Shown one piece after another: positions 1,578 to 8,886 of a DNA stretch of 10,523 nucleotides; the first letter of the stretch is position 1; each line of letters starts with the position of its first letter. Source of the stretch: Candidatus Jordarchaeales archaeon. Its GTDB lineage: Archaea > Asgardarchaeota > Jordiarchaeia > Jordiarchaeales > Freyrarchaeaceae. The position numbers and the translations under genes are program-made. Location of the stretch: the NCBI GenBank assembly GCA_038858525.1, contig JAWCFL010000004.1:101884-112406 (forward strand), in the 5' to 3' direction. The notes under the pieces are model-generated. The model saw only the letters and a program-made list of their open reading frames with translations, was not told where the DNA came from and searched no databases.

Positions 1578-3200
1578 CTGTCTGGCGCATCTGTTGTTCA
1601 TGCCTTAAAGAGCAGGGTTGACGAGGCTAAACAGGCTTTGGACAGGAGTGTTAAAGAGATTCTCGGAAAAATTAGCGAGCTTGAGGCGTACGTTTCCTCT
1701 TCATCAGTCTCCCTGGGAGGGGCGTTGGAGGAGGCACTGAAGGGTAAGGTGGCTGAGCTTGAAGCGTCCGTCAATTCCCTCTCGGATAAAGTAGCGGAGT
1801 TCGTGAATGCTTTCTACGAACGGGAGTCATCCTCGCTGAAAGAGTTCTATGAGCTTCTGTCTTCCGTTGTCGCGTCGTCGTCGGAGTCAACGTCCTCGGC
1901 TCTTAAGGAGTTGTCTGCTTCATCCTCGTCAGCTATAAACTTAGCGGTCAGTGATGCGTCCTCGTCCAGCAAGCAGGCGGCCGGTAGCGTGGCTAGGCTT
2001 GTTGGGGAGCAGAAAGGAGGAACTATGGCTAGAGTTGATGAGCTGGTTTCATCGCAACTATCAGCATTCAAAAGTAAGGTTTCCACCATTGAGAAGTCCA
2101 CCTTTGACCTCATAGACTCCTCCTCGTCGCTATCTGCTGAAGCAATCAGCAGGGCGTCAAGCGTCGTCCAGTCAGCTGTTTCGGACTTGGTGGCGCAGCT
2201 TCAGGACATGCAAAGGCGACTGCACGACGTCGGCGTCTCCCTTCAAGGTAGCTTGGAGGAAGCTAAGAACAGAGTTTCCCAAGAGTCGGAGAAGGCTAAG
2301 AAGAGAGTTGATGAGTCATTCAGGCTCGCCATATCGGACGTGGAGAAGGGCTTCTCATCTTTTAGCGGCGAGGTAAAGCTCAGCATTGAAAGGCTGGCAT
2401 CATCGGTGTCAAGCTTGGTGGAAGGAGAACTTAGCAGCTTAGCCTCAAAAATAGAAGGTGTACTAAGAAACGTGAAGAAGGAAGTGGAAGACTCCCTATC
2501 TTCGGCCTCAGAAAAGGTCAAACGAAGCTTGATGGATGCTCAAAACCAGGTTTCCGTGAGGCTTTCAGAGTCTTTGGAATCAGGCAAGACATCAACGGCA
2601 GAACTTGTAAAGAACGTTGAAGAGGAACTATCAAGAGCCCTGAAAACAGTAGGCGAGATCAGCTCTGAGGCTTCAAAGAAGGTTTCCTCAGTCCTCTCGC
2701 CTCTCAGCCAGAAGGTTACAGGCGAGCTAGAAAGCGTTAAGGCTAAAGTTGAGGAGATCGTTGGAACGATGAAGAGCATAGCCTTCACGGAGATAGTGGG
2801 CGTGGGACTTGTCGCAGGCTACGGCAACGTTAAAGAATACCTAAGGCAGTTAGTTAAGTCAGCTAAGTCCTCCCTCTTGCTCGTGATCCCAAATGTGGAG
2901 ACAGGAGATGTGGAGGCCATATTATCCATAAATCCCAGGGTGGCGCTTCAAGTAGCAGCTTCAGGGGACCCAGCCCTCCTAAGGAAGATCGCCTCTAGGC
3001 CAAATACTACTCTAAGAGTCCTATCGTCAGAAGAAGAAAAAATGCTGGGCGCCGTGAAGGATAGAGAAGAAGCTGTGTTTGCTTGGATACCCCCAAAAAG
3101 GGAGCAAACGGTTGCCATATGCAGCACGCTAGAAGGGTACATAGAGGAGTTTTCGAGGCCAATAAAGGAAACATGGTTTAAAGCGAAAAAATTAGAGTAA
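1578..3200 (+). CDS. Ser-rich 11-mer (hendecad) repeat helical protein with a C-terminal TrmB-effector/PLD-like domain; probable CTG start at 1578 (track start: TTG 1638)
   Basis: The frame is open from 1557, after TGA at 1554. SD GAGGAGG at 1563-1569 precedes the in-frame CTG at 1578. 11-residue hydrophobic periodicity runs over ~1749-2771. The C-terminal segment VAGYGNVKEYLRQLVKSAKSSLLLVIP...DREEAVFA...F..PIKETWFKAKKLE has the TrmB C-terminal/PLD-fold pattern without an HKD motif. Confidence 0.85.
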   Translation: MSGASVVHALKSRVDEAKQALDRSVKEILGKISELEAYVSSSSVSLGGALEEALKGKVAELEASVNSLSDKVAEFVNAFYERESSSLKEFYELLSSVVASSSESTSSALKELSASSSSAINLAVSDASSSSKQAAGSVARLVGEQKGGTMARVDELVSSQLSAFKSKVSTIEKSTFDLIDSSSSLSAEAISRASSVVQSAVSDLVAQLQDMQRRLHDVGVSLQGSLEEAKNRVSQESEKAKKRVDESFRLAISDVEKGFSSFSGEVKLSIERLASSVSSLVEGELSSLASKIEGVLRNVKKEVEDSLSSASEKVKRSLMDAQNQVSVRLSESLESGKTSTAELVKNVEEELSRALKTVGEISSEASKKVSSVLSPLSQKVTGELESVKAKVEEIVGTMKSIAFTEIVGVGLVAGYGNVKEYLRQLVKSAKSSLLLVIPNVETGDVEAILSINPRVALQVAASGDPALLRKIASRPNTTLRVLSSEEEKMLGAVKDREEAVFAWIPPKREQTVAICSTLEGYIEEFSRPIKETWFKAKKLE

Positions 3201-6030: not shown

Positions 6031-7194
6031 CTATTTTTCTTTCGCGGCGTGTTGCTCTATTATGGTCCACGAGTATATTGGCCCATATTTTTCCTCAGCT
6101 TTCTTATCATACTCCCCCTCTATCAGGGGTTTAGGATCCTTAAACACTAATCTAGTTATCATGGATGCCTCCATGGAGAATTTCGGGTAAAACTCTATGA
6201 ACTTCGACGACGGCTTAAGTGCTTCTTCGACATGTTTATAGTACTCTTCTAGGTTCGGCCTCCTTGTCGCCTCGAGAAAGAGCGCCATTAGTTTCTCGTC
6301 TTCGTTCCTTGGTGTGGTGTACTTTATGGATGCAGGTAGCATTCCTTGTATGACCCCATTCATATCGTTAATTATCAGCTTCAGCAGCCTTTGCCTAGTT
6401 TCAAAAGTCATTAGTAGTGGTTCGTTCACAGTCTGAAAGACAAAGTAGCCAGTGGTCTCGATGCCCCGCTTAAGAGCTGAGACCCCCCTGCTCACGAAGA
6501 GAAGTATCCCGCCTAAGCAGTGAGGCGAGTCCGTGCAGAACGTGTCAAATGACCCCTGAAGCTCCTCCGGGAGCGGGTGGACGAGGTTATGCTTGTACGT
6601 CTCTATTTCCAGCCCGTATTTTTCTGAGAGCTCTCTTATTCCCTCTAGGAGCCTTTCGTCTAAATCTACTACGACGACGCGCCTCGGTCTTCCTAGGAGA
6701 CTGCACGTGACGCTCAGGAAGTCATCATCCCCTATGAATATCATTTCTTTCCCATCAACATCTTGGAAAGACTGCATAAACGCGAATTTCCTCATTAGAC
6801 TGTCGCGATTTATTGGGAGTTGCGAGAACTCGTATATTATCCCCATATCCCTCTTTCTCAAAGTGTCTTCGAGCGATTCAGCCCTTGGGAAAGAATAAAC
6901 GGTTCCCCTAATTTCGAGCTCGACAAGTGACTTTACATCCCACTCAACTTTGGACGTGAGTCCGACAGTTAATCTTTCACTGTTAACTTTAAGCATACCC
7001 TTATAATACAGGAAACCTAGAGCAGCCATAACAGATAAAACTTCCATCTTGCACGCTATTCCCCCTATAGTGGTTTCTCCCTCAAGTATCCTGAGCAACC
7101 TCAGCACCTCATAAACCGTCAGGTTCGGATCGTCAGCCACGAAAGCCTTGCAAGCCTCTACCATTTCATTCACGAATTTCTCGTCTACTCTCAG
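6031..7194 (-). CDS. bpsA: Branched-chain polyamine synthase homologue (N4-bis(aminopropyl)spermidine synthase, DUF43); probable CTG start at 7194 (track start: GTG 7173)
   Basis: IFIGDDDFLS, VVVDLDERLL, PLPEELQGSFDTFCTD, FVSRGVSALK and GYF follow the Thermococcales BpsA pattern. SD GGAGGTGG (7207-7200) lies 5 nt before the in-frame CTG, which directly follows an in-frame TAG. Confidence 0.85.
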   Translation of the reverse strand: MRVDEKFVNEMVEACKAFVADDPNLTVYEVLRLLRILEGETTIGGIACKMEVLSVMAALGFLYYKGMLKVNSERLTVGLTSKVEWDVKSLVELEIRGTVYSFPRAESLEDTLRKRDMGIIYEFSQLPINRDSLMRKFAFMQSFQDVDGKEMIFIGDDDFLSVTCSLLGRPRRVVVVDLDERLLEGIRELSEKYGLEIETYKHNLVHPLPEELQGSFDTFCTDSPHCLGGILLFVSRGVSALKRGIETTGYFVFQTVNEPLLMTFETRQRLLKLIINDMNGVIQGMLPASIKYTTPRNEDEKLMALFLEATRRPNLEEYYKHVEEALKPSSKFIEFYPKFSMEASMITRLVFKDPKPLIEGEYDKKAEEKYGPIYSWTIIEQHAAKEK

Positions 7195-7223: not shown

Positions 7224-7254
7224 ACCTGAGCCACGCTTAACGCGTAGCCCAGGC
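7224..7254 (-). other. 13-bp intercistronic stem-loop between speD and bpsA
   Basis: Minus strand GCCTGGGCTACGC-GTTAA-GCGTGGCTCAGGT. Its three G-U pairs work only on the transcribed (-) strand. Confidence 0.6.
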
Positions 7255-7260
7255 GCTCAG

Positions 7261-7620
7261 TCATTCCTCCTCATCTATTAGTCCTCTTTTTATCTCGATT
7301 TCCATGTGGCGTCTAGCCCTCATTCTCGATATAATATGGCGGTAAGCCTCCCAGCACTTTCCAACGTCGCCGCAAGTGAATATGTCTATCGCCGCATACC
7401 CGTCCTCTGGCCAAGTGTGGATCGACACATGGGACTCTGATATCAAAATTATGCCGCTAACACCCACAGGCTCGAACTTGTGGAACTTCACGTCCAGAAC
7501 GTTTAGCCCAGCTATCTCTGTCGCCTCCATGAAAACTTCCTTGATAAATTCCAAGTCATCTAAAACCTCCGGGTCCGCGAAAACCTCACCTATAATGTGG
7601 TGTCCCCTAGGAACCATCAT
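7261..7620 (-). CDS. speD: S-adenosylmethionine decarboxylase proenzyme (class 1B, pyruvoyl-dependent)
   Basis: GHHIIGE, HKFEPVGVSG, self-cleavage motif ISESHVSIHTWPE, DIFTCG. SD GGAGGTG (7633-7627) lies 6 nt before ATG 7620, so the track start at 7629 falls inside the SD. The archaeal arginine-decarboxylase paralogue cannot be excluded from motifs alone. Confidence 0.9.
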   Translation of the reverse strand: MMVPRGHHIIGEVFADPEVLDDLEFIKEVFMEATEIAGLNVLDVKFHKFEPVGVSGIILISESHVSIHTWPEDGYAAIDIFTCGDVGKCWEAYRHIISRMRARRHMEIEIKRGLIDEEE

Positions 7621-7804
7621 CACTACCACCTCCCTTCACTTTTACGAGAAGAGAAGTGAAGGACTCCGCACGGGGCGGGGAGACAGCGGAAAGACGCACG
7701 AGGCGCAGAATGAGAAACATACTAACGGCTACCCAACCCCCAGATGGGGCGGTCACCGACTCACAAACCGCTGAGTAATTGGGTAGCCAAACTCGTAGTA
7801 CCAT
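7607..7804 (-). CDS. Possible 65-codon upstream ORF spanning the speD leader and overlapping the speD start out of frame
   Basis: ATG 7804 is preceded by AAGGGGAG, and the frame is open to TAG 7609-7607. No recognisable protein family, so translation is unproven. Confidence 0.3.
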   Translation of the reverse strand: MVLRVWLPNYSAVCESVTAPSGGWVAVSMFLILRLVRLSAVSPPRAESFTSLLVKVKGGGSDDGS

Positions 7805-7820
7805 CTCCCCTTAAGGGAAG
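7621..7820 (-). ncRNA. Structured 5' leader of speD (candidate riboswitch or attenuator)
   Basis: Perfect 10-bp helix GGCTACCCAA/TTGGGTAGCC (7788-7779 with 7736-7727) encloses three small hairpins. A 10-bp hairpin (7663-7654 with 7641-7632) overlaps the SD. A further hairpin lies at 7820-7805. Confidence 0.6.
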
Positions 7821-7855
7821 CGCAGGCTTTTTTAGCACCTAACCTAAAAACGTCT

Positions 7856-7870
7856 CAAAATATAAATATT
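7856..7870. promoter_or_regulatory. TATA element in the speD / FAH divergent region, readable on both strands
   Basis: The + strand reads CAAAA-TATAAATA and the - strand reads AATATTTATATTTT. Confidence 0.5.
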
Positions 7871-7891
7871 CCCCCCTCCCGGGCAGCAGAT

Positions 7892-7933
7892 ACGCTTCCA
7901 AAGTAAATTTTACACGCTTCTAAAGTAAATTTT
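7892..7933 (+). repeat. Two-copy 20-bp direct repeat with a 22-bp period
   Basis: ACGCTTCCAAAGTAAATTTT (7892-7911) and ACGCTTCTAAAGTAAATTTT (7914-7933), one mismatch. Confidence 0.85.
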
Positions 7934-7986
7934 TTTAGTTGTCTCCTCGCCTGAGGATACTAACAAGCTCTCTTTGAGGGAAAACT

Positions 7987-8886
7987 ATGAAGCTTGTCTG
8001 CTTCTTTCGTGATGGTGCTCAAAGGGTAGGCGTGCTGGTTGAAGGTGACGTAGTGGTTGACCTCTCCTTCCTACTTAAAGACGCAGTCAAAGAGCTAAAC
8101 ATGATCTCCATTTTGTCTGCCGGCGAGTCTCTCCTGGAGCGGATCCGTGAATTTGCTCTCTCCCTGTCGGACAAGCTTCAGGATGGCTTTTTGCGTGATA
8201 AGCGCATAGCCTATTCTCTCGCCGACGTGAAGTTAATGGCGCCCATCCCCAGACCGGGAAAAATAATATGTCTCGGGTTGAACTACTCTGACCACGCCGA
8301 GGAGGCAGGGTTGAAGCCCCCCGATGAACCGGTCCTCTTCTCTAAGCCAGCAACAGCTGTAGTTGGACACGACGACCCGGTAATATACCCGAGGGTTTCA
8401 AGCCAAGTCGACTACGAGGTAGAGCTGGCAGTCGTAATAGGAAAAAAAGGAAAAGACATCACTGAGGAGGACGCATACGAGTATGTGGCAGGGTACACCG
8501 TGTTTAACGACGTATCAGCTAGAGACATTCAGTTCAGGGGAATCCAGTGGTTTAGGGGAAAGAGCTTCGACACCTTCGCCCCCATGGGTCCATGCCTCAC
8601 ACTCAAGGACGAAATTCCAGACCCCCACAACCTGAAAATGCAAATGAGGATCAACGGCGAAGTCAGGCAGAAAGGCTCCACCAAGAACATGATATTCAAA
8701 ATTCCCTACCTACTATCATTCATATCAGCAGGAATGACGCTGGAGCCAGGCGACGTAATAGCAACAGGAACACCATCAGGCGTCGGCATATACTCGAAAC
8801 CCCAAAAACTACTGAAACCCGGAGACGTTATGGAAGCCACCATAGAAAAAATAGGAACACTCAGGAACAAAGTCGTCTCACCATGA
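7987..8886 (+). CDS. Fumarylacetoacetate hydrolase family protein (2-hydroxyhepta-2,4-diene-1,7-dioate isomerase / FAHD2-like)
   Basis: KIICLGLNYSDHAEE, FSKP, DYEVELAVVIGK, GYTVFNDVSARDIQ, GKSFDTFAPMGP, PGDVIATGTPSGVG. Confidence 0.95.
   Translation: MKLVCFFRDGAQRVGVLVEGDVVVDLSFLLKDAVKELNMISILSAGESLLERIREFALSLSDKLQDGFLRDKRIAYSLADVKLMAPIPRPGKIICLGLNYSDHAEEAGLKPPDEPVLFSKPATAVVGHDDPVIYPRVSSQVDYEVELAVVIGKKGKDITEEDAYEYVAGYTVFNDVSARDIQFRGIQWFRGKSFDTFAPMGPCLTLKDEIPDPHNLKMQMRINGEVRQKGSTKNMIFKIPYLLSFISAGMTLEPGDVIATGTPSGVGIYSKPQKLLKPGDVMEATIEKIGTLRNKVVSP

Follow-up and report, generated by a model that had tools for sequence, protein, structure and literature searches.

The window analysed here, a stretch of 10,523 nt, covers positions 101884-112406 of contig 4 of a 2.09-Mb Asgard MAG. 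On its minus strand lies speD, which runs from an AUG at 7620-7618 to a stop codon at 7263-7261 (7620..7261 from the AUG, or 7261..7633 when the Shine-Dalgarno (SD) sequence GGAGGUGG at 7633-7626 is included). Its product is a pyruvoyl-type S-adenosylmethionine (SAM) decarboxylase (Pfam AdoMet_dc, E = 6.5e-34). Downstream on the same strand is bpsA (6031..7173), the gene for branched-chain polyamine synthase (Pfam BpsA_C, E = 2.1e-37), and the gene order speD-bpsA is kept in relatives. On the other side of speD, a divergent gene for a fumarylacetoacetate (FAA) hydrolase starts at 7987, and the 367-nt gap between this start and the speD AUG holds a structured leader. Within the leader, also on the minus strand, there is an upstream open reading frame (uORF) of 65 codons (7607..7804), which begins with an AUG at 7804-7802, ends with a UAG stop at 7609-7607, and overlaps the start of speD by 14 nt.

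Five Jordarchaeaceae species genomes were searched, this one included, and all five carry speD, as does a sister family within the order. Leaders for comparison were collected by pattern scans of metagenome and genome collections and from the members of the speD protein clusters with their contigs. This gave 12 distinct Jordarchaeaceae speD leaders, ten from Jordarchaeum and two from Freyrarchaeum, which cover only about six semi-independent lineages. (One metagenome match, L034, was due to chance.) A leader core of 106 nt aligns across all 12 with just two 3-nt insertions, and the speD SD and its spacing are kept in every one (12/12).

The promoter for this transcript (7860..7876, minus strand) consists of a G-rich, BRE-like run at 7876-7871 followed by the TATA box TTTATAT at 7866-7860. 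The sequence GGGGGG(T/A)AATATTTATAT is conserved, with small variants, in the Jordarchaeum leaders for which upstream sequence is available; Freyrarchaeum lacks the G-run and retains just GGAATATTTATAT. Given the usual archaeal spacing between a TATA box and the start site, transcription is predicted to begin near 7836, about 32 nt before the uORF AUG, which would place the start above the structured element, as the original prediction requires. Directly 5' of the uORF AUG is a small hairpin, CUUCCC-UUAA-GGGGAG (7805..7820, minus strand). A pyrimidine tract and an invariant GGGGAG precede the AUG in 12/12 leaders, and the local folds that they form range from -4 to -10 kcal/mol, apart from that of L052 (-1.8 kcal/mol), whose contig contains only 9 nt of upstream sequence. 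The hairpin shows no covariation because its G's are invariant. Folding predictions also give GGGGAG alternative partners, which are either the pyrimidine tract just upstream or pyrimidine tracts downstream. Since GGGGAG abuts the AUG, it lacks the spacing of a normal SD, and initiation at the uORF is unlikely to follow the usual SD-led route; elsewhere in the window, other genes have an SD 5-8 nt before the start. (It should be noted that this reasoning uses the general archaeal consensus and the other genes of the window, as a pattern search found no 16S 3' end in the MAG.) Counted from the A of the uORF AUG, the first helix of the conserved fold, P1, begins 16 nt downstream, a distance that corresponds to the leading edge of an initiating ribosome.

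The original prediction described the fold in this leader as a four-way junction, in which a perfect 10-bp helix encloses three hairpins. The fold was evaluated with RNAalifold and by explicit pair counting over the 12 distinct leaders. The closing helix, GGCUACCCAA (7788-7779) paired with UUGGGUAGCC (7736-7727), is indeed present, and a U-G pair between 7789 and 7726 extends it to 11 bp (P1, 7789-7779/7736-7726). P1 is 99% paired across the 12 leaders, and two of its pairs are changed on both sides: pair 27-86 is A-U, G-U or G-C, and pair 31-82 is A-U or G-C. The hairpin ACUCA/UGAGU is found as described, and its four inner pairs are conserved (hairpin 1, 7775-7772/7763-7760), with pair 36-51 occurring as four pair types. 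The hairpin CCCC-AUCU-GGGG is likewise present, and three of its pairs are conserved (hairpin 3, at least 3 bp, 7749-7747/7739-7737), with pair 68-80 being C-G in 9 sequences and G-C in 3. The middle hairpin, CGG-UGA-CCG, is present in this sequence, but it is not conserved (its closing pair is 42% paired); consequently, the conserved fold (7726..7789, minus strand) is a three-way rather than a four-way junction.

An outer helix, P0 (7719..7800, minus strand), in which UACUA (7800-7796) pairs with UAGUA (7724-7720), adjoins an asymmetric internal loop (CGAGUU). This helix, also part of the original prediction, exists in genus Jordarchaeum only. It is 87-92% paired, lacks covariation, and is broken in Freyrarchaeum and in L053; furthermore, an alternative register is equally good, in which CUAC (7798-7795) pairs with a GUAG-like sequence at 7722-7719 (GUAU here, which leaves one C-U mismatch). 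When P1, hairpin 1, hairpin 3, and P0 are tested together as one structure, 96.6% of the cells are paired and 4 pairs are changed on both sides across the 12 leaders. This covariation was reached by 0/500 shuffles, and shifting the 3' partners by 1-3 columns lowers the pairing to 22-52%. In this genome, a 91-nt stretch folds to -34.1 kcal/mol (z = -2.1 relative to dinucleotide shuffles). The G-U variants among the leaders would be C-A mismatches on the opposite strand and thus the structure belongs to the mRNA; a palindrome at the level of the DNA was rejected on this basis.

The leader fold is therefore a three-way junction, a new lineage-specific structured RNA within a conserved uORF, and in this respect the proposal of an undescribed, conserved, and covarying cis-RNA in an Asgard speD-bpsA leader has held up in the 12 leaders. 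A covariance model built from the leader alignment (R1) gives exactly one match per Jordarchaeaceae genome, always before speD (119 bits here), and no match in 56 other Asgard genomes. Rfam yielded no match at the gathering score for the window and 7 related loci and nothing relevant at E <= 10 for positions 7550-8050, in agreement with the earlier view that the fold is not SAM-I. The C/D sRNA and the SAM-I or spermidine riboswitch were rejected as candidates, given that Rfam gave no match, and a tRNA-like RNA or tmRNA was rejected, as ARAGORN found none in the window. A dispersed repeat or MITE was also rejected, since the element is present as a single copy in the 2.09-Mb genome both by BLAST and by the covariance model.

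The original prediction took the fold to be a riboswitch aptamer for SAM, dcSAM, MTA, or a polyamine; in a classical riboswitch of this kind, ligand binding would change access to a start site. In its favour, the leader of this metabolic operon does contain an RNA with several conserved, covarying stems, and a few unpaired G and U residues are kept. In addition, the precedent that had been cited, a spermidine-sensing variant of SAM-I that controls bacterial speD, holds in the literature: bacterial spermidine riboswitches precede speD, speE, and speB (PMC10853860). However, the element lies inside a conserved open frame, and only two unpaired junction or loop nucleotides, G42 and G54, are invariant, with G40, U56, and G57 nearly so. 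Of the joining strands, the one between P1 and hairpin 1 is variable throughout and the one between hairpins 1 and 3 accepts 3-nt insertions, all of this within one family. The alternative or pseudoknot pairing that had been proposed as the switch, GCGGU/ACCGC, is 68% paired, which is below all 500 shuffles, and no other conserved switching helix was found. Moreover, the motif is confined to a single gene in a single family, Rfam contains no relative of it, and an analogous fungal hairpin, the SDC motif, bound neither spermidine nor spermine (PMC5640933). A classical riboswitch is thus a doubtful explanation for the junction.

A second possibility is an RNA thermometer, in which heat would melt the outer helix and the pairings of the start regions and thereby increase translation of speD-bpsA, whose products are needed when it is hot. 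By prediction, heating from 65 to 80 C opens P0 and the pairings at both starts while P1 remains folded; the record names place the hosts in hot springs and hydrothermal sediment; and Thermococcus without branched-polyamine synthesis is compromised in growth at very high temperature (PMC12979288). Against this, the conserved core is far too stable, with predicted energies of -6 to -12 kcal/mol at 80 C, and the predicted unpaired probabilities of the start regions rise only gradually with temperature. The open frame is left unexplained, and a mesophile-like sister family also has a uORF leader. We consider a thermometer unlikely.

The junction could instead be a site for a protein that recognises the GGCUAC/GUAGCC helix, for example an autoregulatory RNA-binding protein or a nuclease. 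The most invariant blocks of the leader are P1 and its 17-nt 5' flank, GGGGAGAUGGNACUACG, with conservation peaking in these 17 nt before the junction and not in the junction itself. A second hairpin with a GGCUAC/GU(A/G)GC core lies between speD and bpsA, and a similar helix closes the leader domain of the sister family. Nevertheless, in L053 the intercistronic hairpin covaries away from the GGCUAC/GU(A/G)GC sequence, there is no known candidate protein, and here too the open frame goes unexplained, so that a protein site, like a thermometer, is improbable. (A K-turn or L7Ae site was sought by eye, as tandem GA in the two strands of the asymmetric loop; no consistent pattern was seen.)

The open frame itself is a conserved feature of these leaders. 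It has 63-79 codons and overlaps speD by 11-34 nt. The AUG is invariant, and in 12/12 leaders the frame has 0 stops until it has passed the speD start; the other two frames have 3-7 stops each. By dinucleotide shuffling, the chance of such an open frame is 0.04-0.09 per sequence. The conserved core contains five UGA or UAG triplets, every one of which is out of frame. Over six clade representatives, the open-frame probabilities for the divergent second half alone multiply to 6.5e-4, but because this half is pyrimidine-rich, each clade contributes only 0.13-0.58 and the lack of stops in it is just mildly improbable. In 10/10 Jordarchaeum leaders, the AUG and the speD SD are 168, 171, or 174 nt apart, all multiples of 3. 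In Freyrarchaeum this length is off by 23 nt and the frame is still open; between L013 and L035, the two leaders of this genus, a +1/-1 pair of indels restores the uORF frame.

The way in which the uORF meets speD varies. The uORF stop lies 8-11 nt past the speD AUG in Jordarchaeum and 31 nt past it in Freyrarchaeum, and the frame of speD relative to the uORF differs by clade (+1, 0, -1). In the Jordarchaeum clade of L012, L040, and L052, the spacer between SD and AUG is 1 nt shorter and the uORF is consequently in frame with speD, giving a continuous open frame of about 190 codons; it is possible that this clade makes an N-terminally extended SpeD proenzyme.

At the level of the peptide, there is little sign of constraint. 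The first, second, and third codon positions of the uORF have column entropies of 0.63, 0.59, and 0.52, so that no codon periodicity is seen; for comparison, the values for the first 20 codons of speD are 0.13, 0.00, and 0.84. Furthermore, changes that restore a helix are non-synonymous in the uORF: Val to Ala in L051, Trp to Arg in L053, and Gly to Ala in L012. Taken together, these results indicate that selection acts on the RNA fold and on the open frame, not on the peptide. They speak against a functional small protein and equally against an arrest peptide that depends on its sequence. Although the open frame, the invariant AUG, the 3-nt indels, the in-frame fusion to speD in the L012, L040, and L052 clade, the UCC UAG or CCC UAG ends of the uORF in +1-offset leaders, and the A AAA AAA run in the uORF of -1-frame leaders could all be accommodated by a gene for a protein of 63-79 residues with an incidental RNA fold, or by a uORF joined to SpeD through programmed frameshifting, this explanation is the hardest to credit, given the missing periodicity, the non-synonymous helix-restoring changes, a C-terminal half that is unalignable as protein, and a frame relation to speD that varies among close relatives, against a required fusion. 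(A frameshift fusion of the uORF with SpeD was judged unlikely on this last ground.)

As to the two frameshift-like sequences, the antizyme frameshift site is UCC UGA, and the UCC UAG or CCC UAG end of the uORF (7607-7612 here) resembles it; the A-run before the SD has 8 residues in L013 and 7 in L035. Both likenesses are probably coincidences imposed by the codons of speD.

Between the junction and speD, the second half of the uORF forms a pyrimidine-rich linker (7642..7718, minus strand) with a between-clade identity of 48-72%. Within the linker, UCUCCCC (7683-7677) can pair with either GGGGAGA (7810-7804) at the uORF start or the speD SD, and predicted folds pair the linker with both of these purine-rich start regions. 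Next to the SD is a further hairpin, CCUUCACUU/AAGUGAAGG (7633..7662, minus strand), a perfect 9-bp inverted repeat that abuts it; relatives have, by eye, different local hairpins at this site. In predicted ensembles, the speD SD is mostly paired, with an unpaired probability of 0.06-0.36 at 65 C. The native linker is, however, no better than dinucleotide shuffles, linkers shuffled at constant composition masking the SD about as well; a specific SD-masking structure is therefore doubtful, and the masking is probably a matter of composition.

The reading that we favour, at a probability of about 0.55, is that the speD-bpsA leader controls translation in cis: a thermostable RNA junction would gate a uORF that is coupled to speD. 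The element would then belong, as a variant, with leader- or uORF-based control of translation and would not form a new class of riboswitch. Starting from the observed fold, the open frame, and the geometry that relates them, we infer that the uORF is translated, in the following manner. The mRNA would begin about 30 nt before the invariant uORF AUG, at the predicted start. The junction and its flanking helices would limit either initiation by ribosomes at the uORF or their passage through it. Those ribosomes that do traverse the uORF would open the start region of speD and terminate just beyond it, tying the output of speD and bpsA to the traffic on the uORF. The direction of such control could be either positive, with speD promoted by unfolding or re-initiation, or negative, with speD repressed by occlusion. 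The clade-to-clade variation in frame relation (+1, 0, -1) rules out a single precise mechanism based on termination.

The level of polyamines is the most plausible input to this leader, with temperature as the second candidate. Branched polyamines stabilise RNA and the translation apparatus (PMC12979288). Long or branched polyamines could act in this leader by stabilising RNA structure and affecting elongation, and in this way the product would feed back on its own synthesis. That the junction and uORF together make up a true polyamine sensor, whether through a specific aptamer or through polyamine-dependent progress of ribosomes across the structure, is a more speculative reading, considerably less probable than translational control as such. 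In a more exotic form of it, the uORF would be joined to SpeD by frameshifting at UCC UAG or at A AAA AAA.

Insight into the generality of this arrangement comes from the sister family, an AT-rich genus in the same order (L014-L018) in which speD is followed by speE, not by bpsA. Its speD leader is about 220 nt long, is conserved and structured, and carries a uORF of 48-63 codons whose end lies 7-36 nt upstream of speD. In 3/5 genomes, the first AUG of the uORF falls within a 10-bp helix, AUGAGCUACU/AGUGGCUCAU. The uORF includes MSYSTKMFQNKQHLG... (in L018, MMEKRQRIRYNQ...), and between the two lineages it differs by conservative amino-acid replacements. The recurrence across the order of a uORF in a structured speD leader supports the general uORF-leader reading. 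Any homology between the two leaders is tentative: the Jordarchaeaceae covariance model has no match in the sister-family leader, and only a GCUAC/GU(A/G)GC helix core, recognised by eye, is shared.

Control of SAM decarboxylase (AdoMetDC) by uORFs is well documented in eukaryotes. The AdoMetDC mRNAs of animals, plants, and fungi are controlled in this way, an arrangement that arose at least three times, and uORFs are the common device of polyamine-responsive control in eukaryotes (PMC2811004). The mammalian MAGDIS uORF and the tiny and small uORFs of plants resemble the Jordarchaeaceae leader in that a uORF is placed before the same enzyme step, and the plant small uORF, at 48-55 codons, is similar in length to the 63-79 codons seen here (PMC2811004). 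The common logic of the eukaryotic uORFs and the proposed Jordarchaeaceae leader would be translational autoregulation of polyamine synthesis. The eukaryotic mechanism, however, depends on scanning ribosomes and a sequence-dependent nascent peptide, whereas in the Jordarchaeaceae the peptide is not conserved, the main frame comes with an SD of its own, and its start is overlapped by the uORF. The AdoMetDC classes of the enzymes differ as well, and no homology is implied.

The fungal SDC motif provides a second parallel. It combines an 11-bp hairpin with uORFs in the leader of a SAM decarboxylase gene and represses translation, and no binding of spermidine or spermine to it was detected (Li and Breaker 2017, PMC5640933). 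The 11-bp stem, the uORFs, and the SAM decarboxylase gene are shared with the Jordarchaeaceae leader, the comparison being made with the published description of the motif. In contrast, the SDC motif is described as a simple hairpin that directly precedes the gene, its uORFs lying in the same 5' UTR but not around it, whereas the Jordarchaeaceae structure is a three-way junction located inside the uORF. In addition, the SDC motif functions in a spliced eukaryotic mRNA, and no sequence relation between it and the Jordarchaeaceae junction is apparent.

Among prokaryotic systems, bacterial leader-peptide attenuation or coupling of translation (ermC and cat type) is similar to what is proposed here for the Jordarchaeaceae, as translation of a uORF remodels the mRNA around the SD of the next gene. 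Known attenuators rely on one particular peptide for stalling and on a defined set of alternative hairpins, and the Jordarchaeaceae conserve neither. Translational coupling by termination and reinitiation is known in archaea (PMC6728339). Like the Jordarchaeaceae leader, these systems have a short uORF and an overlap of the stop and start regions. The overlap is 11-34 nt in the Jordarchaeaceae instead of 1-4 nt, and in one clade the two frames are fused. The bacterial spermidine riboswitch is like the Jordarchaeaceae leader in being a cis-RNA before polyamine genes that include speD, but it has the four-stem core of SAM-I and resides in an untranslated leader, in contrast to the three-way junction seen here (PMC10853860).

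In the literature searched, cis-regulatory control of archaeal polyamine synthesis was not described anywhere, and few regulatory RNAs have been validated in archaea. The leader described here joins a covarying three-way junction to an open uORF with a drifting peptide, before the committed step of polyamine synthesis. Its host belongs to the archaeal group closest to eukaryotes, which regulate the same step through uORFs. If the leader is functional, it would provide a model for structure-gated translation of a uORF in archaea and a possible sensor of polyamines or temperature for the speD-bpsA (branched-polyamine) operon. If it were truly a polyamine sensor, it would represent the first archaeal circuit in which SAM decarboxylase is autoregulated through a uORF, a hybrid of riboswitch and leader peptide. 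Even if it merely provides constitutive coupling, it is a clear case of overlapping selection at the levels of the RNA and of the reading frame.

Several other features of the window were observed. Directly after the speD stop and before bpsA, the minus strand contains a 12-bp hairpin, CCUGGGCUACGC-GUUAA-GCGUGGCUCAGG (7225-7253), which is not followed by a U-run. It is kept in L011 and L013, covaries in L053 (GGGUUGCGCAC/GUGCAACCC), and has the GGCUAC/GU(A/G)GC core in common with leader helix P1; it may be an element for processing, stability, or protein binding. Between the divergent promoters of the FAA-hydrolase gene and speD there is a tandem 20-nt direct repeat, ACGCTTC(C/T)AAAGTAAATTTT, at 7892-7933 (plus-strand coordinates) with a spacing of 22 nt. 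A related motif, TTTACTTGGAAA, also occurs in L010 and L011, and the tandem repeat is probably a site for a transcription factor. At the far end of the window, a small GTPase of the Ras/Rab family is encoded on the minus strand (669-1187; Pfam Ras, E = 3.5e-53), and divergent from it is a gene for a 520-residue protein (1638-3200, plus strand) with weak matches to apolipoprotein-like repeats, a pair that fits an Asgard origin.
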